Shown here in pieces: positions 24,806 through 34,466 of a stretch of DNA of 64,000 nucleotides. A model generated the notes under the pieces. The model worked only from the letters and a program-made list of their open reading frames with translations, had not been told where the DNA came from and did no database searches. The position numbers and the translations under genes are program-made. Where the stretch lies: IMG/VR virus record IMGVR_UViG_3300021335_000004. One strand, 5' to 3'. Position 1 is the stretch's first letter, and the number at the start of each line of letters is the position of its first letter. This DNA is from a virus.

Positions 24806-25347
24806 AAATATTCAGTCCTATCTAAGGTTTCTAAGTATGCTTTATCTAGCCACGGTTTATGTACAGGAGCAGGTTGTGGTATATTTCTTACAGTATGTCT
24901 TTTATTAGTTTCATAGAAATCATAATTTATTAAAAATAGTTTTGATGCAGTGTATTTATGAAACCAATAAGCAGCAATAGTACCTGTTAAAGGTCTAGAT
25001 ATTTGCATTTCTTCTGTCATTGTTTCCCACTCTTCGACTGCCCAAAAATAGGTATGAATCCACTCAGTTGGAAAATTACGTCTCATATTTGCACCATTTC
25101 TATCCCCATTAGCACGTATAATAAAACGCTCTCCTCCTGATCCCTGCGAATCGTGTTGAAATTTAGGATCTTGTGACTGGTTGTTAAACCAAATATCACA
25201 GTCTCCCCAACGACGACTAGAGTTTAATCTAACTAAAACAGGAGCACCCTCAATGACAACTCCGTCTAAAGGAACTCCTGATGATACAATATAAATATCT
25301 CTATTATCAATAAAATCAATTATTTCTGAGAGCAATAATCTCTCCAT
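24790..25347 (-). CDS. putative glycosyltransferase-related protein (GT29/sialyltransferase-like motifs)
   Basis: VRLN, RPLTG, INYDF, H.P..DK; weak match. Confidence 0.45.
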   Translation of the reverse strand: MERLLLSEIIDFIDNRDIYIVSSGVPLDGVVIEGAPVLVRLNSSRRWGDCDIWFNNQSQDPKFQHDSQGSGGERFIIRANGDRNGANMRRNFPTEWIHTYFWAVEEWETMTEEMQISRPLTGTIAAYWFHKYTASKLFLINYDFYETNKRHTVRNIPQPAPVHKPWLDKAYLETLDRTEYLWITP

Positions 25348-25988
25348 TCATCGGCATAAGATTGGTTTTCATACCCTTCTAACCAAGGTCCTCCATCAGT
25401 AAAATGAACAGCACTTGGTTTAATATCTTTATCGTAGTATCCTAATAAGTAGTTCCACTCTATAGGCAAAGAACCAACTTCTCCGTCATAACACCAAGCA
25501 AATTGATGAAGATCGGCAGGGTCATAATTATTAACTAAATCAGGAGTAAGAAGACGACACGCCTCGTGTTCACAATTAAATAACATCAAGGATGACCAGT
25601 TCTTCTTTGGATAGAAATGATTTATTTGATTGTCCATTTTAGAAGAAGATTTAGGAGTATAAACATGTTGAACTACTTGAACTGCTTTAGTATCATCTTT
25701 AAGAGCAAATAAGTTAGAAATATCGTCTAACCATAAAAAGTCACAATCACAATAAACAGCCCAACCTTTGTACCCGCTTAGTGCAGGAACTAAAAAACGA
25801 GTAAGAGAGAAAGGAGTAGAAGCTCTATCGTCTTCTTCTCTCCAATAAATTTTTGAGTTTCTTAAATCGTTTTGATCGAGTTTATAGGCTTTAAAAAAAC
25901 TAGGATGAGCCGTATTTCTAAAAATAGAGTTAACACAGGTTTCATAAGCAACTGATTGTTTAGGGTCATAACCGATATAAATATTCAT
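25320..25988 (-). CDS. GT8-like glycosyltransferase
   Basis: IYIGYD…STPFSLTRFLVP…DCDFL…KNWSS…WN…HFTDGGPW. Confidence 0.85.
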   Translation of the reverse strand: MNIYIGYDPKQSVAYETCVNSIFRNTAHPSFFKAYKLDQNDLRNSKIYWREEDDRASTPFSLTRFLVPALSGYKGWAVYCDCDFLWLDDISNLFALKDDTKAVQVVQHVYTPKSSSKMDNQINHFYPKKNWSSLMLFNCEHEACRLLTPDLVNNYDPADLHQFAWCYDGEVGSLPIEWNYLLGYYDKDIKPSAVHFTDGGPWLEGYENQSYADEWRDYCSQK

Positions 25989-26076
25989 TTTATAACACTA
26001 CTTTTTTTAGGTTTAGACTTTTTTAGACGGGCTTTTAGCTTTCGTAAACCATAATCTTTATACCTAATAATTATCA

Positions 26077-26427
26077 TTAAAGTTGTTCCTTATTTTCAAA
26101 ATATTTTTGAACATCAAAGCTTATTCTATCTCCAAAAGCTATTATACAAGCTTCATCACTGTCTAAATGCATTTCTACAACAGTAAAAGTTCCTGTGTCT
26201 GTGTTTACAAATACGTATATAGGCCAAAGTTCTTTCTTTTGTTGGGAGGTACGTATTTCACCTATACCACCTAAAATAGCTTTTTCACCAGCTTCATCTA
26301 AAAACTTATAAAGAGAGGTTGGATCCCCGCACTGTACAGGTTTTTCTCTCCACTGTGTCTCTGCAAAAGCAGAAAAAGAAAAGAGAAAAGTAGTAAAAAC
26401 TATAATAGTTCTAAGTAAATTTTTCAT
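26077..26427 (-). CDS. exported hypothetical protein
   Basis: Signal peptide; KPVQC…ACI. Confidence 0.7.
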   Translation of the reverse strand: MKNLLRTIIVFTTFLFSFSAFAETQWREKPVQCGDPTSLYKFLDEAGEKAILGGIGEIRTSQQKKELWPIYVFVNTDTGTFTVVEMHLDSDEACIIAFGDRISFDVQKYFENKEQL

Positions 26428-26887
26428 AATCGTTCGGATCCCAATGTTTACGATCGTGTACTAGAATTTCAAAGCCTACCCCAGATAAATGAACTCTATC
26501 AACATCGGAATGATTAAAGCCCACCAATTCTCGCATATCCTGAATGATATGATAGTTAACAGGGATTTTATCGACATCCCAATCTCTCCAAGCAACAATA
26601 CAAGGTACTTTGGAAATATTTGATTTAAGTGCAGCTGCAAGTCTTTGTCCTCCGTGTGTACAAACATATTGACCGTTTTTATATATTACACATATTGGGT
26701 ATTTTAACCCATCTTTGTTTATGCTATCTATTAATTTATTTAATATAAGTGTCCAACCTTGATGTCTTGCACGATACCATCTTTCATCTCTAGAAAGTTG
26801 ATTGATAATTATATTTTTATCTAATTCAACATATGTTAACACAAATTTTTGTGTTTTATCTGCTGTACCGTTAAATTGAAAAGTCAT
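26411..26887 (-). CDS. ParB/Srx-like domain protein
   Basis: LIDSINKDGLKYPI…GGQRLAA…VP. Confidence 0.7.
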   Translation of the reverse strand: MTFQFNGTADKTQKFVLTYVELDKNIIINQLSRDERWYRARHQGWTLILNKLIDSINKDGLKYPICVIYKNGQYVCTHGGQRLAAALKSNISKVPCIVAWRDWDVDKIPVNYHIIQDMRELVGFNHSDVDRVHLSGVGFEILVHDRKHWDPNDYEKFT

Positions 26888-27233
26888 AGTTCAAAAAATA
26901 ATATTGACCGACTTTCTTAAAAGTAGTCTCACCCTTTATTTCAAATTTTGTTTTTATATCTTCTTCTGTTACTAAAGTTGAACATTGCTTTGAAGAAATA
27001 ACAATAGTTTTACCATAGATACCGTCCCAAGACCACTCCTCAATTCTAAAAGGTATAGAATCTTTTTTTCCATAAGCTTTTGCTAAAATGCGAGTATCAG
27101 GCTCTATAGGAACTTCATCAAATATTTTGTACAACTCTTCTTTACCCACTCTTTGTATTCTTCTTCCATATTTTCTAGCACAGAATCTATACCACTTGCT
27201 GTGACTTGCAAGTAATCTTTTTTGTATTTCCAT
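26871..27233 (-). CDS. hypothetical protein
   Basis: ORF in operon. Confidence 0.6.
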   Translation of the reverse strand: MEIQKRLLASHSKWYRFCARKYGRRIQRVGKEELYKIFDEVPIEPDTRILAKAYGKKDSIPFRIEEWSWDGIYGKTIVISSKQCSTLVTEEDIKTKFEIKGETTFKKVGQYYFLNYDFSI

Positions 27234-27448
27234 TAAGAAGAGCCTCTTTGTTTGTATCTAAGGAAAACATAAACACCTAATCCAATAATTATGATACCGT
27301 CTTCGCTAAAAAACATAGAAGCTATAAAAGCTGACATCATTGAAAGTATAAAAGTACCTGCTTCTCTAGCCGCTTCTTTCTCCGGTATCTCTAGCGGGCC
27401 GTCTTTCGAAAAGAACTTCCTCCCTATCATCTGTATCAAGTTTGCCAA
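27233..27448 (-). CDS. small membrane protein
   Basis: Two hydrophobic segments. Confidence 0.5.
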   Translation of the reverse strand: MANLIQMIGRKFFSKDGPLEIPEKEAAREAGTFILSMMSAFIASMFFSEDGIIIIGLGVYVFLRYKQRGSS

Positions 27449-27689
27449 AATGTTCTACTCCACCACCATAAGCATCAAAATCAAAGTCCAATTGCTGAGA
27501 TAATTCACTATGATAAACTACGGTAGAACTAGCCATAATTCCAGAAACCCAGTTCTCACAAGCATCTCTAATGTAATATTCAGATTTGTCTGAATAATCA
27601 ATACTTCCGATAAATTTATCGTTTTCGTAAAAAGTAACAAAATTACCTTTTAAATCAGCTATACGATTATTATTTTCATATTTTGACAT
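27366..27689 (-). CDS. hypothetical phage protein
   Basis: Start MSKY after AGGAG; DKSEYYIRDACENWV.G motif. Confidence 0.6.
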   Translation of the reverse strand: MSKYENNNRIADLKGNFVTFYENDKFIGSIDYSDKSEYYIRDACENWVSGIMASSTVVYHSELSQQLDFDFDAYGGGVEHFGKLDTDDREEVLFERRPARDTGERSG

Positions 27690-28036
27690 TTTAGCAGCTC
27701 CTGTTCCACTCCGTGGAAGACTAGGGGAAATTTCATTTCCCAAAGCGTTGCCCACAGTGTATTATTATAATAACAAAAAAACCACCTTCATGCAAGCCAA
27801 AATTTGGACGCAATGGTGGCGTGACACTAGTTGTGATTTCATCACTGTAGTTGTTAGCTTAGTGAAATATAAATTAAATGAGAAGCAACTGCACACACTT
27901 GTAAGTAAAATAAAACATTTTGTTGATGCTGTGTTATCTCATTGCGTTTTCGCCTGCGTTGTGAAACTCCGTTTCTTTTTTTTCTTCCCTAAGAGTAACA
28001 CAATTCTGACCTTCGGTCAATGATAAAATTCTAAAA

Positions 28037-28282
28037 CTAAGAATTTGCGGATTCTAGAAGGGAATGTAGTGCGACTACGCGATTCGCAGGCGAGATATCA
28101 TAAATCTGACCTAATGGCTCGTTTAATGATACATGCTTCTTGACGATTCTTTGATGCTTGCAGGGCTTGCGATAGGAAGGACAGTTACAGTAACTGCTGA
28201 TATGATAGACAGCGAGAGGTTTGCTATCCTCTCCCCAAGAAGATACTTCGTACCCAGAATTTGCGCGTCTAACTAAATACAT
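28037..28282 (-). CDS. SWIM zinc-finger protein
   Basis: CNCP…PCKH. Confidence 0.7.
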   Translation of the reverse strand: MYLVRRANSGYEVSSWGEDSKPLAVYHISSYCNCPSYRKPCKHQRIVKKHVSLNEPLGQIYDISPANRVVALHSLLESANS

Positions 28283-28294
28283 TTATTACTCCGT

Positions 28295-28390
28295 TAAGGT
28301 GAGGAGACGGAATTCTGCCAGGACTCCAGTTTTTCAAGTGATTTTGAGTTGGCGTTGAGATCCGCAGATTGTGCGTCTCCTCAATTTGTT
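28295..28390 (-). ncRNA. structured RNA unit A (ncRNA, or leader of the SWIM gene)
   Basis: Promoter TTGCTA-17-TAATAT at 28425-28397; 10-bp terminal stem TGAGGAGACG/CGTCTCCTCA. Confidence 0.55.
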
Positions 28391-28454
28391 AATTATATAT
28401 TACCAAAAATTCGAGAGACTAGCAAGTGTAATTTTGCCTAAATTTATATTTTAC

Positions 28455-28812
28455 TAAAAAGCAAAAGGGCGCAACACTAGGTTACGCCCAATTACTTCTA
28501 GAAACCTGGTTGCCCAATCTTCTAGAGTTCTCCTTTGTTGTTCGCTATCTTTCGCCCGAATCTAATTCAGCGGCTTGGCCTCACACAAGGGATAGCTTAC
28601 CTAATTTTAAATATTAAACCAGCACCCGCCCGCCGTTTAACCGTTTACACCAACACAAGTACTAGTGATATACAGGTGGATGAAGTCCGTACATCTCATG
28701 TATTGCCCCCCCATGTAAACTAACCTGAATGGGGTGTAGTCGCGAGGCCGAAACCTCCACTACGTCTCCCCCTCGCAGAAGAGCTATGAGAAGAGCGACT
28801 TCTCAATCTTTA
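28455..28812 (-). ncRNA. structured ncRNA unit B (~350 nt)
   Basis: Promoter TTGCTT-17-TAATAT at 28847-28819; several hairpins; terminator GGGCGTAAC…GTTGCGCCC-TTTT; no sense ORF in the track. Confidence 0.65.
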
Positions 28813-28854
28813 TAACTTATATTAGCATAAAAAGATACACTAAGCAAGTATAAA

Positions 28855-29597
28855 GTTAACTTATCTACTCCGACCCTTTCGTTTGTTACATAAACTACTC
28901 AATCGCAGTTAGCCTACATAGATAAGTAGTGACCACCACCAACCTCGTCAGTCACCTTTGAGGCAGCATACACGCTGTTGTTCCTCCCCGACTTACAGAT
29001 TGCTTCCTGTAACCAGAACCCCCTGATCATGCTTTACAGCCAACGGCGGGGACTAAGTAAAGTCGAAGTTCGAAAACAAGACAACTTAGTGCGTCAAAGA
29101 AGAGTTATCTAGAATAGGCTACTTCTTTGCGGAAGGTTTTTTTAAGTAGGTTATCCTTACCGAAACTACTCAGAAAGAGGAGAGCGATTAAACTAAGGTC
29201 CGTCTATGACTGGACTACCTGCTCTTTCTTATATAACTGCCTGGCGGCTCTAATTGCTCTTACCTAAGTAATCAGACCAGGACTTTTCCAGCTGCCAGAA
29301 ACTTAATTCATGTTCAGCGCTTCGAAGCGAGGTATTAACGCCCCTCTTAGAATTTCAACCCTACCCCTATAGGTAAAATCTATCTTGGCGCCTAGCTTTT
29401 TGGTTTTGACGTGAACCCAACCTAGAGGGAACGGTACAAGGAGTATTTATAGACCGCCTCCAAGTCAGGGCGGAGAGAGAAAGGATGAAGGGCGGTTCCG
29501 TCCCTTCCGTTGCATCATTAACCGAATTTATCTTGCGCAGTTCAACCTGTAAAACAACCTGATTTTGCTCGGAGGATGATCCCCTTCTCAATCTTTA
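28855..29597 (-). ncRNA. structured ncRNA unit C (~740 nt)
   Basis: Promoter TTGCTA-17-TATAAT at 29632-29604; many stems, two pseudoknots; GC-richer than the coding DNA. Confidence 0.65.
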
Positions 29598-29639
29598 TAA
29601 CTTATTATAGAATATTTTTAATCATTTAGCAAATATAAA

Positions 29640-29798
29640 ATCACGGGCGAGAGTAGTTTCTGTACTAGCGAAGAGTGTTTTTGAATAGTGCCTAGTGTCA
29701 TTACACATCATGGGCTTGTCTTGCGTTCCCTACTCGTAGCACTCGCCCCTTGACTTTACAAAAGGTTTTTTTGAAGAAGGTTATCCTTAAAACTTCTA
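29640..29798 (-). ncRNA. structured ncRNA unit D (~160 nt) starting with a pseudoknot
   Basis: Promoter TTGCTT-17-TATTAT at 29832-29804; GGGCGAG/CTCGCCC and GAGTAG/CTACTC stems. Confidence 0.65.
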
Positions 29799-29834
29799 TA
29801 AACATAATATAATAAATTTTAGCATTAAGCAATA

Positions 29835-30072
29835 AAAAAGTGGTGGGGAGAATCACGCGTCTCCCCAAGTTTTCAAATTCGAGCGCAAGCGTATACTGGA
29901 CTAGTCCACCTCTACTCAATGAAAAACTTATACGCGGTGAAAGTGTCGTTTTCACAATACGCTGTGCCTATCGTATGGCACAAGCACGATTGATTTTAGC
30001 TTAGAGCTAGGTACTAACAAACCTAACGTCGCGAGCTCAGTGAGTTGCAGCTAGATTTATCGCTCAATCAAT
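29835..30072 (-). ncRNA. structured ncRNA unit E (~240 nt)
   Basis: Promoter TTGCTT-17-TATTAT at 30107-30079; multibranch stems; 3' hairpin GGGGAGA/TCTCCCC-ACCA-C-T6. Confidence 0.65.
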
Positions 30073-30139
30073 AAATATATAATATAAGAAATTTAACGAT
30101 TAAGCAAACTAAAAATTGTTTTAAGTTTAGTATTTGGTT

Positions 30140-30844
30140 TTATTTTTCATATATAGTTAGTACCTCTTTGACAACAGGATGTCTTTCAATATCTTCATGT
30201 TTAAATTCTAAATACTTAATATAGTCTGTAGCACCATGATGAACTAAACAATCCATAAAATGAGCTAATCCGTTTTCTTCATATCCATTATCATGCTGAT
30301 CTAAATCTCCTGTAAGTATAAATTTAGAGCCTTCTCCTAACCTAGTTAGTAACATTTTTACTTGTTCACGTGTTGCGTTCTGCATTTCGTCTGCAATAAC
30401 CCAAGAGTGTTTAAAGGTACGCCCTCGCATATAAGCAAGAGGAGCAACTTCTATTTTTTCTTCTTTCATAAAGTATTCAAGTTGTTGAGGAGAAAAATAT
30501 GTTTTAAGTATATCAGTAATAGGTTTCATCCAAGGATCCATTTTTTCAAGTATATCGCCTGGTAAGTAACCATGTTCTTCATCTACTGATACTGCTGGAC
30601 GAGTTATTACTATTCGATCAAAATGTCTATCTTGAAACTCTTCTGCACCTTTAGATACTGCAAGTAGTGTTTTTCCTGTACCGCTTGGGCCTGTTGCTAT
30701 AATTATATGAGTGTGTATATCATTCATTAACCTTAAATAGTAGTTCTGTCTTTCATTTTTTGGCTCAATAGTAACTTTCTTACTTGGTCTAATTGTTGCT
30801 AAATCATTATCAACTAACTTAAATTGTGTAGTTTTTCTCGGCAT
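30140..30844 (-). CDS. phoH: PhoH-family ATPase
   Basis: GPSGTGKT, ITRPAV, GYLPG, AYMRGRTF, DEMQN, TGDLDQ. Confidence 0.95.
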   Translation of the reverse strand: MPRKTTQFKLVDNDLATIRPSKKVTIEPKNERQNYYLRLMNDIHTHIIIATGPSGTGKTLLAVSKGAEEFQDRHFDRIVITRPAVSVDEEHGYLPGDILEKMDPWMKPITDILKTYFSPQQLEYFMKEEKIEVAPLAYMRGRTFKHSWVIADEMQNATREQVKMLLTRLGEGSKFILTGDLDQHDNGYEENGLAHFMDCLVHHGATDYIKYLEFKHEDIERHPVVKEVLTIYEK

Positions 30845-30948
30845 AAATTTCTCCTTTGAGTTAAAAAAATAGAGGTCATCGAGACCTCTATCAATTACTA
30901 ATTTTAGTAATTTCTTCATATTTTTTCTATCTTTTTTTGAGGCTATAC

Positions 30949-31446
30949 TCATTCACCAGCTCTTAAATAGTTTAAAACACTAGTAGCGGTTGAAACTTCA
31001 AAAGGTTCTTCTGATGGGTTGTCTTCTTTTCCTTTCTCAATAAAAGTTTTTTCAATATTCATTCCTTTGGTAATAATAGCATATCTCCAAGAACGGTATC
31101 CATATCCTTTACTAGACTTATCTACTAACATGCCCATTTGACGAGTAAAATCTGCATTACCATCTGGTAACATTTTAATATTCTTAATGCCTAACTCTTT
31201 TGCCCATGCGTTCATTACATGAGAATCATTAACAGATAAACAAAACACATTGTCAATACCGTGTGCTTTAATATCTTCGTATAATAAATCAAATTGTGGT
31301 AAATGAGTAGAAGAACAAGTAGGTGTATACGCACCAGGAACTGCAAACAAAATATTCCTACCTATAAAGTAGTTTTCTGTAGCAGCCTCTATCCATTCTC
31401 CATTTTCTCTAATTTTGAAGATTGTGTTCGGAAGTTTAGTTATCAT
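30949..31446 (-). CDS. peroxiredoxin (Prx5-type)
   Basis: VPGAYTPTCSSTHLP, SVND..VM.AW, DGN..FT, RSWRY. Confidence 0.95.
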   Translation of the reverse strand: MITKLPNTIFKIRENGEWIEAATENYFIGRNILFAVPGAYTPTCSSTHLPQFDLLYEDIKAHGIDNVFCLSVNDSHVMNAWAKELGIKNIKMLPDGNADFTRQMGMLVDKSSKGYGYRSWRYAIITKGMNIEKTFIEKGKEDNPSEEPFEVSTATSVLNYLRAGE

Positions 31447-31589
31447 TTTCTAATTCCCCCTCCTTTCTTATTATAGTTTCTAATTGTTCAGATATATGAT
31501 CAATTGTTTCTTTTAATAGTTGTTTTTCTATTTCTAACTTTAATACTCTGTCTTTTATTGTATTAAGCTCTTCTTTCAGCGTACTCATG

Positions 31590-34466
31590 TTATCCTACTC
31601 CTGGCGATCCATAACCTAATGCTTGAGGACCTGTTGGTGATAATTCAAAAACAGAATCTACTGCATAATACCCAGAAGCAAAAGGAAATCTTTCAATCTT
31701 ATTAGTCCCGCTTGAATCAGTCATTAAATAAGCGTCATAAGCGCCTGATATAGCAGTGCCTTTAGATTGTTGAGTGTGTACATAAGGAGCCTGTGGCGCT
31801 TGAGGCCCTCTTAGTTCTCCAAACCATTGATCTCTATTTTCACCGTAGCCAACTGTTCTACTATAACTAGCCAAGGGTATAACCGAAAAACCTGTTAAAC
31901 CAGGAGTACTTGTAACAATATAACCAAGGTTACTCCAAGCGTACATTCTACCGCTTTCTGGAAAAGATCCTAAATCAGTTTTAGTGATAGAGGAAGAACC
32001 AGAAGCTCCTGCAAACCTATCAATATCATTATAATTAGTATTTCCGGCATCACTAGGATATTTAGAAGCACCTGCTATTTGATAACCATAATCCATACTA
32101 GCGCCTGAAGCTTGTTCCATTCTAGAAGTAGTTAGAGTACTAGATTCAGCAGCATTAGTTTCAGAAGGAAAGACAAACTGTTCCATAGTACTAACTGCTG
32201 CTTTTGGACCTGTGATATTACCTGTCCAACCACCTGCTACATAACCTCTATTACTAATACCTAAAGAAAATCCTCCGTGCATTGCTCTACCAGTAGTTAG
32301 TGTGTCTACTGAAGATGCTATTGTAGTACTAGGAAAAGTAAAAGAAGCAATATCGGTAGTCATCCCTTCGTTAGTAGGAGAGTTATAGTGCCCATATCCT
32401 CCTGCTGAATAAGCTTTATTAGTACTATCTGGAGATATTAACACAGCATGATTAGTAAAAGTATGAGAACTAGTAAGAGTTCCCGGATCTACAGCGACCC
32501 CACTCCCAGAGGTAAGTGGAAAGTAAGTTACCTTTCTTAAAGAAGTGTTCGAAGGCTCGTTAATACCGCCGCCGCCTATAGAACCTCCATATGCTTTATT
32601 TGATCCAGCAGAGTGATTAGGATAATAGTAACCAGGTTCTCCACTATAAGGACCTACAGGTGGGTAGCTAATCATTCTATTAAAGTAAACATCTCCAGCA
32701 CTTGGAACAGAAGCAGCATTAGCAGTGTGCTGAGTAGGTGTTGAGGTTGGTACGTATTGTGAATAAGAATAAGCTGACACAGAGGGAACATTAGTATTAA
32801 ATCTGAGATAAGCAAAACCTGGTTGAGCTTGATCTGCATAAGAACTATTTCCCATTATAGCAGCAGGGGTGTCACTAAACCCCTCATGACCTGGAAAACT
32901 TACAGGTCCTTGTCTACTACCGCTTGTATAAATTTTACCATAAGTAGCTGGAAAAACAGGAGCTTTCCAATTTCCTCCCGAACCTTTATTAACGGTTAAA
33001 GAGCCTGATCCAGGATATGCCGGTCCTGTGATAGGTACATTTCCTGGAAATCCGGATACTGTCATAGTATTAGGAAAAGTAAGAGTATATCCTACACCTC
33101 CAGCTCCTTGCATCTGTCCGAAAGTTCCGGGCCATGCTGATATAGGTCTATTATGTTCTAAATTGACACCTGCATATCCAGTACCGTCATTAGTGTGTGT
33201 AGGGGTTTTTGCATTTGTACCTGCAGGAAGTGTTCCTACATCACCACCATCTCCGGCTTGTCCTAGTTTAAGTGCTAACATAGACCTATCAGTAACTGAC
33301 ATAGCATAAGGACTTTCTGTAGGCGCAGGAGAAGCTAACTCTGGCTGAGTATCCCATCCATGACGTCTATAACCTTTTTGTAAAAAAGAAAGTTGAGACC
33401 TAGGACCGTTTGTTGCATTTGTATAAGGAGTAGAAGGTATAAATCCTACAGCATAGGGCATACCTGCATCAGCAGCATCAGCGTTTCCCTCTAGCATACC
33501 ACCTCGTTTACCTTGAAGACCTCCACCGGCTACTACGTAGTTAGTACCATTAATATTAACAGAAGTAGTACCTCCACTACCGTCTGCAGGAGCTGATCCT
33601 ATGCTAACCGAAATTGGAGTAGCAGGTGTAACAGGTATAGAGACAGGATAATAACCATGAGCGCCTGCTCCTCCCCCTCCAGCCCCTGCCATGTCTGTTT
33701 GATAAGTATAATGAGGTACCCACCACAACCCTCCATCATAACTAGTCGGGGCTTCAGTAGCTCCAGGACCATCTCCACCAGTATAAAGATAAGGGCCTGT
33801 GCTACCCCCAGCACCGATTGCAGTCCAAATTTGTACTGTAGATACTCCTTCTCCTACTAAATCACCTACTGTAGACCCTAAAGGAGCAGAAGGAGCGTCA
33901 AAAGCCATATCAACAACACCTGCTTTTTTATAAGCAGTAGAAGTATTTTCACTAGGAGACCCTGTTCCAGCATTATTAATGCCACGAATAACAAACTCAT
34001 GAAGAAGTCCTTGGGGTGTTGTAGCATTAGGAATTTTTAGAGTAATAGGAGAGGATGTAATAGGAGTTCCGTTTTCATCAGTACTAACATACGTATATGC
34101 TCCTCCTGCGGGAGCAGGTCTATATCCTATTTCCCAACTATTAGCAGTTTCTCCATTAGTGCTTTCTGTCCACGAAACATCAAACCCAAAAAAAGTATCT
34201 TCAGAAGTAGTAGCCGTAATAGTGGGAGCAGGATGAACAGTAGCTTGAATATTATGAAGTTCATCTAAAGAAATAGCAGTTCCTGGAGTAGAAGGTATCG
34301 AAGATGTTACAAAGGGATCGCTAGAAGTGCCATACCCATACTTCTCCCCCGGTGCAAGAACATTTCCAACACGATAGTCGTCTAACGATCCAGGGGCTGT
34401 TCTAAGGGGAGAGTATAAATCCTTAAGGTTTTGAAGGGAGATTGGTCCTGAAGTTGGAGTTCCCAT
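31590..34466 (-). CDS. large tail-tip/adhesin protein (Fn3-like, Gly-rich and Kelch-like domains)
   Basis: N-terminal PTSGPISL as in fibre-tip adhesins; Gly-rich GAGGGGAG; C-terminal IERFPFAS repeats. Confidence 0.7.
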   Translation of the reverse strand: MGTPTSGPISLQNLKDLYSPLRTAPGSLDDYRVGNVLAPGEKYGYGTSSDPFVTSSIPSTPGTAISLDELHNIQATVHPAPTITATTSEDTFFGFDVSWTESTNGETANSWEIGYRPAPAGGAYTYVSTDENGTPITSSPITLKIPNATTPQGLLHEFVIRGINNAGTGSPSENTSTAYKKAGVVDMAFDAPSAPLGSTVGDLVGEGVSTVQIWTAIGAGGSTGPYLYTGGDGPGATEAPTSYDGGLWWVPHYTYQTDMAGAGGGGAGAHGYYPVSIPVTPATPISVSIGSAPADGSGGTTSVNINGTNYVVAGGGLQGKRGGMLEGNADAADAGMPYAVGFIPSTPYTNATNGPRSQLSFLQKGYRRHGWDTQPELASPAPTESPYAMSVTDRSMLALKLGQAGDGGDVGTLPAGTNAKTPTHTNDGTGYAGVNLEHNRPISAWPGTFGQMQGAGGVGYTLTFPNTMTVSGFPGNVPITGPAYPGSGSLTVNKGSGGNWKAPVFPATYGKIYTSGSRQGPVSFPGHEGFSDTPAAIMGNSSYADQAQPGFAYLRFNTNVPSVSAYSYSQYVPTSTPTQHTANAASVPSAGDVYFNRMISYPPVGPYSGEPGYYYPNHSAGSNKAYGGSIGGGGINEPSNTSLRKVTYFPLTSGSGVAVDPGTLTSSHTFTNHAVLISPDSTNKAYSAGGYGHYNSPTNEGMTTDIASFTFPSTTIASSVDTLTTGRAMHGGFSLGISNRGYVAGGWTGNITGPKAAVSTMEQFVFPSETNAAESSTLTTSRMEQASGASMDYGYQIAGASKYPSDAGNTNYNDIDRFAGASGSSSITKTDLGSFPESGRMYAWSNLGYIVTSTPGLTGFSVIPLASYSRTVGYGENRDQWFGELRGPQAPQAPYVHTQQSKGTAISGAYDAYLMTDSSGTNKIERFPFASGYYAVDSVFELSPTGPQALGYGSPGVG

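Follow-up and report, generated by a model that had tools for sequence, protein, structure and literature searches.

Two copies of a conserved H-type pseudoknot, laid out like a class I preQ1 aptamer, lie at the 5' boundaries of RNA modules within a gene-free RNA cluster of an uncultured tailed phage. The reading that we tentatively prefer is that this knot is a structural 5' head module, either self-filled or only assisted by a ligand. The window, i.e. the whole stretch of 64 kb that was analysed, is part of the genome of this phage, which is of marine or estuarine origin and carries tRNA genes as well as genes for a baseplate protein, PhoH and a peroxiredoxin.

Fold and conservation of the pseudoknot

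Both sequences of the original prediction are present in the window as given, on the minus strand. The coordinates of copy 2 (29797-29762) stand as predicted; the start proposed for copy 1, 29172, takes in two extra bases (UG), and the true span of this copy is 29170-29133 (38 nt). Copy 2 (29762..29797, minus strand; AGAAG-UUUU-AAGG-AUAAC-CUUCU-UCAAAAAAA-CCUU) scores 62.8 bits with model R1. Its P1 helix pairs 29797-29793 with 29779-29775 and its P2 helix pairs AAGG (29788-29785) with CCUU (29765-29762), these strands being joined by the loops L1 (UUUU, 29792-29789), L2 (AUAAC, 29784-29780) and L3 (UCAAAAAAA, 29774-29766). Copy 1 (AGUAG-UUUCGGU-AAGG-AUAAC-CUACU-UAAAAAAA-CCUU), which scores 60.5 bits with the same model, occupies 29130..29170 on the minus strand when the extension of P2 is included. 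Its P1 pairs 29170-29166 with 29149-29145, and its P2 is longer, with 7 bp and one bulged U (CGG-U-AAGG, 29162-29155, with CCUU-CCG, 29136-29130); L1 is UUU (29165-29163), L2 is again AUAAC (29154-29150) and L3 is UAAAAAAA (29144-29137). Both assignments rest on sequence and covariation.

An alignment of eight different forms of the motif, drawn from four lineages of related phages, shows that this is a real H-type pseudoknot, P1 and P2 both covarying among relatives. The two helices are kept in all eight versions, with 88.6% of the cells paired, and P1 is always paired. Four pair changes are two-sided, one in P1 and three in P2. The swap of the middle P1 pair that had been noticed between the two copies holds across the alignment, this pair being A-U in copy-2 types and U-A in copy-1 types, while in P2 one pair alternates between A-U and G-C, another between A-U and U-A and a further one between C-G and G-U. 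None of 500 shuffles reached the covariation score, and sliding the partner strands abolished the signal. Moreover, RNAalifold predicts P2 unaided on RNA B, the RNA that carries copy 2, and a U-to-A change in P2 of copy 1 in lineage L004 merely moves the bulge. Both paralog types are found in all the lineages, each with its own differences; therefore, the duplication is older than the split of the lineages and the core of the motif has been held since then.

For copy 2 of the window, the minimum-energy fold is a nested hairpin (GAAG/CUUC plus AAGG/CCUU, -4.6 kcal/mol). This hairpin can form neither in copy 1 nor in the L004 version, and the pseudoknot is therefore the conserved fold. The hairpin would be all that is left if the motif were a functionless accident, i.e. 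a duplicated A/T-rich segment that forms a simple hairpin only. Such an accident is very improbable, given that the hairpin is impossible in copy 1 and in L004, that three P2 pairs covary, that chance provides 0.12 sites per window and that the knot is the only part common to two unrelated RNAs. The chance level was obtained with a class I descriptor (5-bp P1 with a G-C closing pair, U as first base of L1, L2 ending in A/U-C, A-rich L3 ending in A, P2 of at least 4 bp), which matches the 64-kb window at two sites on both strands together, namely copies 1 and 2. Random sequences of the same composition contain 0.12 descriptor sites on average, and none of 100 contained two or more; the two sites of the window thus exceed chance. 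As for the two RNAs, the local alignment score of RNA B against RNA C, the RNA that carries copy 1, is 47 over the knot and the adjoining AAAG, versus 18 +/- 2 for shuffles and 18 with the knot masked. RNA B and RNA C are otherwise unrelated in sequence, with the knot and AAAG as their sole shared part.

The distribution of the variable positions is uneven. The floor pair G5-C19 and U6 U7 are fixed in all eight versions, as are the last three pairs of P2 and the whole of L2 (AUAAC), including the unpaired C directly before the 3' strand of P1; the end of L3 is, in each version, at least four A followed by CC. Variation is peripheral and affects the middle pair of P1 and the outer pairs of P2 as well as two of the loops, L1 in its 3' part and L3 in its 5' part. 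Both helices are weak: P1 on its own reaches -1.3 to -1.9 kcal/mol, and P2 on its own 0 to -6.3 kcal/mol. Tertiary contacts, Mg2+, a ligand or a protein must therefore support the knot. Pairing of L2 with a GUUAU segment located 5' of copy 1 was considered and rejected, this segment being separated or altered in other lineages.

The motif belongs to a narrow group of phages. The nearest record, 98% identical to the window, carries the same copies, and searches among viral and metagenome contigs, guided by PhoH and by patterns, recovered three further lineages with PhoH proteins 83-85% identical to that of the window. The PhoH clade is small, with identities of 80-100% and then a gap down to 60%. 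Each genome, including relatives rated 91% and 100% complete by CheckV, harbors two knot copies, both inside the RNA cluster, and model R1 detected none beyond these, either in the window or in the related genomes G002 and G003. When viral contigs were scanned with patterns of the knot and of the core of module C2 (see below), nothing outside the same small clade came up, apart from two contigs (L051 and L054) that fit the knot pattern by chance. A scan of metagenomes returned 117 stretches, mostly chance matches; among the retrieved loci, the P1 filter retained 16 motif instances in nine loci, every one of which belongs to this clade. The descriptor gave three matches, which is the chance level, on 1.33 Mb of other phage loci. 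Furthermore, the cluster has no blastn match among GenBank phages, a neighbouring protein of 958 aa has no tblastn match, and Rfam detects no known family in 28200-30200, either at gathering thresholds or at E<=10.

Predicted promoters and modules of the RNA cluster

The two copies are located between phoH (30952-30140) and a gene encoding a protein of 81 aa (28282-28037), where 1.86 kb without genes (28283..30139, minus strand) carry a cluster of structured RNAs, each promoted separately. As had been predicted, neither copy precedes a gene, no conserved ORF being present in 28283-30139. The small ORF that follows copy 2 was rejected as a coding sequence because it is not kept in L004. The promoter-like units of the cluster, of which there are several, are all of one type (TTGCTT or TTGCTA, 17 nt, TATAAT-like) and recur together with the first transcribed bases; terminator-like hairpins are present as well. 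The 81-aa gene has its own promoter-like site and is separated from the cluster by a terminator-like site.

Two of the RNA units, C and D, have in common a 65-nt repeat (28790-28854 and 29575-29639, minus strand) that comprises the promoter and the first transcribed bases (AAGUUAUAAAGAUUGAGAAG), and the leader of the 81-aa gene is headed by a related start (AAAUUGAGGAG). These resemblances suggest that the three may have a common 5' leader element.

RNA B (29631..29797, minus strand, about 160 nt) consists of the 5' pseudoknot, a branched body and a U-rich terminator-like end. The knot is followed by 4 nt and then by AAAGUC (29757-29752), which pairs with GAUUUU near the 3' end. Its promoter-like site (29804..29832, minus strand; repeat D2) has a -35 box TTGCTT (29832-29827), a 17-nt spacer and a -10 box TATTAT (29809-29804), and lies just downstream of the hairpin and U run that form the terminator-like end of RNA A (29844..29867, minus strand). 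Six bases separate TATTAT from A1 of copy 2, in agreement with the proposal that this copy starts at the predicted +1. This distance is 6-7 nt in four lineages (the window, L004, L005 and L070), and the +1 at copy 2 is a sound prediction because the promoter geometry is the same in L004, L005 and L070.

Copy 1 is not close to a promoter: it lies about 430 nt into the promoter unit of RNA C, at the start of module C2. Module C1 (29171..29597, minus strand) stands behind a TTGCTA-17-TATAAT promoter (29632-29604) and ends in a 57-nt hairpin insertion (about 29229-29172). Module C2 (28860..29170, minus strand) is made of copy 1, a variable hairpin that starts from CAAAG and a conserved core, and has the highest depth in RNA libraries. 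The sequence directly 5' of copy 1 differs by lineage: there is nothing in L004, the 57-nt hairpin in the window and in L005 and a whole ORF in L070, where copy 1 begins 4 nt after the stop codon of the inserted ORF. The hairpin located 2-3 nt after the knot also varies in sequence among lineages. Across the lineages compared, the knot is constantly joined to the downstream module C2; since its 5' edge varies while it goes with C2, the knot is the head of this module.

Two further features of RNA C were observed. In L070, the inserted gene (L070:3300-4010), of about 230 aa, lies inside RNA C between module C1 and copy 1. In the window, a partial third copy of the knot (UGAGUAGUUUAUGUAA vs UGAGUAGUUUCGGUAA) is found at 28886-28901 (minus strand), near the 3' end of C2; it corresponds to the 5' half only, the 3' half being without match.

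The location of the knot exactly at module boundaries, which are the sites of insertions, is also what would be expected of a recognition or processing signal for an RNA-binding protein or an RNase, of phage or host, with a cut at the module boundary or nucleation on the knot. The invariant sequence of the unpaired L2 and of the flanking (C/U)AAAG points in the same direction, as does the conservation beside the cluster of the 81-aa protein with its CxC...CxH motif. Copy 2, however, lies at the predicted start of a primary transcript, where processing is unnecessary, and we regard this explanation as improbable. The 81-aa protein itself (28037-28282, minus strand) has a C-N-C-x7-C-K-H sequence, i.e. 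a CxC...CxH pattern like that of SWIM zinc fingers, and no Pfam match; it is kept beside the cluster in two lineages, and L005 has an extra ORF between its gene and the cluster.

Sequences of the cluster are well represented in RNA libraries, 42-63% of its words being present in six metatranscriptome runs from five studies. Depth was profiled over 25000-34000 in four runs, which were picked for holding this very stretch. Word depth over 28612-29815 is in the tens to hundreds in three metatranscriptomes, versus 0-9 for the flanking genes, these values coming from assembled contigs. The bin 28913-29213 has word depths of 570, 59 and 2,475 in three metatranscriptomes from three studies; these figures derive from contigs, from which neither ends nor strand nor a reliable ranking can be read. 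The fourth run (X15) was rejected as evidence of expression, its depth being flat at about 6x over the whole 9 kb, as for DNA. One RNA contig matches 29125-29169, which is copy 1, and only this segment, with flanks unlike the window; here, then, the knot has been retained and its neighbours have not. Other RNA contigs with flanks unlike the window match islands of the cluster at 28865-28903, 29506-29541 and 29636-29673, which are the conserved cores of more distant, expressed relatives of the cluster RNAs. In another RNA-library contig, 150 nt of RNA A (29799-29948) are swapped for 151 unlike letters, both sides matching, which is a further sign of exchangeable RNA modules.

Comparison with class I preQ1 aptamers

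All the pocket positions named in PMC11625349, PMC8222354 and PMC10622847 are present in the two copies, in line with the class I layout claimed in the original prediction. In class I aptamers, the pocket comprises the G-C floor (G5), U6 of L1, a strictly conserved specificity C before the 3' strand of P1 and the last A of the A-rich L3 (PMC11625349). The base before this C is U in type I aptamers and A in those of types II and III (PMC11625349, PMC10622847), and types I and III have UU atop the 5' strand of P1 (PMC11625349). In the Thermoanaerobacter aptamer, the ligand is stacked between G5-C16 and G11, with a junction loop U12-A13-A14-C15 (PMC8222354, PMC10622847).

Like class I aptamers (RF00522; for instance type II of Thermoanaerobacter tengcongensis and type III of E. 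coli yhhQ), the phage knot is an H-type pseudoknot in the range of 34-38 nt, with a 5-bp P1 on a G-C floor, U(U) opening L1 and, in the ceiling, a G (PMC11625349, PMC10622847), which in the phage knot pairs with the C next to the A tract. As in types II and III, its junction loop ends in A-C before the 3' strand of P1. The last A of its A-rich L3 abuts the first P2 pair, as does the adenine that reads the edge of the ligand in class I aptamers. Its L2 is the UAAC of the Thermoanaerobacter aptamer plus one extra A on the 5' side (PMC8222354). The phage P1, however, is A-U-rich, whereas the known types keep G-C near the top of P1 and type III keeps three G-C pairs in this helix (PMC10622847). 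Moreover, the polarity of P2 is reversed by comparison with type III, AAGG being in the loop and CCUU in the tail.

The search with the Rfam class I model, proposed together with the original prediction, was negative: RF00522 has no match to the phage motif at its gathering threshold (39 bits), nor at E<=10, whether 2 kb or 71 nt were searched. In three related genomes, this model gave noise matches of 8-14 bits, none of them at the motif. The leader of yhhQ in E. coli K-12 (L298:9176-9211), used as a control, also has no RF00522 match at E<=10, and its sequence agrees with the numbering of the validated 36-mer of type III (U8, C15, A33, end AAGG; PMC10622847). The miss is therefore not diagnostic for the phage knot, because the model also misses the yhhQ leader. 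In a control run, only one of 14 well-known genomes passed the RF00522 cut-off. By contrast, a widened pocket descriptor has the yhhQ leader as its only match in 16 kb and also recovers both phage copies. The failure of RF00522 does not exclude membership of class I, and the descriptor match does not prove it. For other surveys, this means that the Rfam preQ1 model misses a leader, that of yhhQ, whose layout fits a validated type III member.

A true class I preQ1-fold aptamer, carried by a non-coding RNA and recognising preQ1, preQ0, guanine or another guanine-faced base, is possible and comes as a close second to the structural head. Its ligand would close the knot and set the folding, the stability or the length of the RNA, or the abundant RNA would soak up the ligand. 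The presence of all the class I pocket positions, invariant in the eight versions while the periphery varies, argues for such an aptamer, as does the recovery of both copies by the descriptor that recovers the yhhQ leader. Weak helices are, in addition, typical of ligand-assisted folding, and a titration effect is conceivable given the high depth in RNA libraries. Against it stand the A-U-rich P1, the opposite polarity of P2 and an RF00522 score below about 8 bits, this last point being weakened by the E. coli control. Furthermore, the family is known from one small phage clade only, so its conservation is shallow.

The genetic context also speaks against an aptamer. Unlike preQ1-I riboswitches, the phage knot lies outside mRNA leaders, without a Shine-Dalgarno or terminator platform, and neither copy is followed by an expression platform, a regulated gene or a conserved ORF. 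There is also no conserved alternative pairing. The original prediction linked the motif to queuosine or 7-deazaguanine, a link that found no support in the genomes searched: QueC, TGT, GTP cyclohydrolase I (FolE) and QueD are all missing from the nearest record and two relatives (G001-G003), the latter being rated 91% and 100% complete by CheckV, and no Q-pathway gene is near the knot. A leader knot was sought at 36, then at 80 queD loci of viral contigs, starting from QueD of phage 9g, and none was found; these loci are mostly on contigs of about 10-65 kb, in which the sequence before queD is mostly coding-like.

A more specific proposal is that the knot represents a fourth class I preQ1 subtype, a free-standing sensor heading abundant phage non-coding RNAs, with preQ1, preQ0 or a different guanine-like base as its ligand, that would tie their stability or shape to the host pool of purines or queuosine precursors, or would deplete this pool. 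We consider this proposal possible, but less likely than not.

A possible structural head and its significance

The structural head, which remains our preferred reading, is favoured by the conserved fold, by the position of the knot at the head of modules, by the depth of these modules in RNA libraries and by the absence of riboswitch wiring: there is neither a regulated gene nor que genes. The knot heads modular non-coding RNAs of the phage that are very abundant, copy 2 being at the predicted +1 of RNA B and copy 1 at the start of module C2 within RNA C. According to this reading, the A-rich L3 would occupy the minor groove of P1, with the U-rich L1 placed over P2. The first nucleotide would already be paired and a helix would follow within 2-5 nt; an RNA built in this way would therefore have no single-stranded 5' end, and we infer that it may be shielded from 5'-end-dependent decay (RppH, RNase E sensing, RNase J). 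The knot would also set the module boundary and seed the folding of the module. At the P1/P2 junction, an adenine of the loop itself would fill the pocket, as A14 does in the ligand-free Thermoanaerobacter aptamer (PMC8222354, PMC10622847), or a small ligand would help.

Two points stand against a structural head. Weak helices are poor material for a mechanical roadblock. Moreover, a plain knot needs neither a 5-nt junction loop nor an invariant unpaired C, whereas a ligand pocket predicts both. The same weakness bears on the nuclease-blocking triple-helix cap that had been offered as an alternative: the position of the knot at the 5' boundaries of RNA modules fits such a cap, but its helices are thermodynamically weak.

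Several known systems share some of these properties. A B12 riboswitch reportedly controls the non-coding RNAs EutX of Enterococcus and Rli55 of Listeria. In both cases, it is a non-coding RNA, and not an mRNA, that bears an aptamer-like domain at its 5' end; unlike EutX and Rli55, the phage RNAs show neither a clear terminator decision nor a known protein partner. The 5' hairpin of ompA and the pseudoknot of the T4 gene 32 leader are 5'-terminal stabiliser structures of mRNAs. They resemble the phage element in that the structure lies at or beside the first nucleotide, and the T4 case is also an H-type pseudoknot of a phage. However, these elements are on mRNAs and the gene 32 knot is an operator for gp32, whereas the phage RNAs are non-coding. 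PMC10690425 cites the nucleation of gp32 on this knot.

Like the xrRNAs of flaviviruses, coremin and ENE, the phage knot would be a small fold, knotted or triplex, at the end of an RNA that accumulates. It differs from them in having no ring-like fold round the 5' end, no sequence likeness and much weaker helices. With regard to xrRNA-type elements, the knot is found at module boundaries and the depth peaks in 28913-29213, in contigs that show no ends and for a knot with weak helices. H-type pseudoknots of the frameshifter or telomerase type, with a minor-groove triplex, have two coaxial helices and a junction of 0-1 nt. Unlike these, the phage knot has an invariant junction loop, L2, of 5 nt.

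Should the knot bind a ligand, it would rank as the first class I preQ1-type aptamer to be found outside an mRNA leader, a riboswitch-type aptamer in a virus without a gene to switch. The phage would then sense or titrate a host metabolite with an abundant non-coding RNA, and roles of riboswitch folds beyond gene control would become testable with an RNA of 36 nt. If the knot is ligand-free, a complete preQ1-I pocket layout can be a plain structural head-piece, which would be a warning for riboswitch calls based on motifs. In that case, the knot would also offer a clue to the assembly and stabilisation, by phages, of modular RNAs that rank with the most abundant transcripts of some metatranscriptomes.
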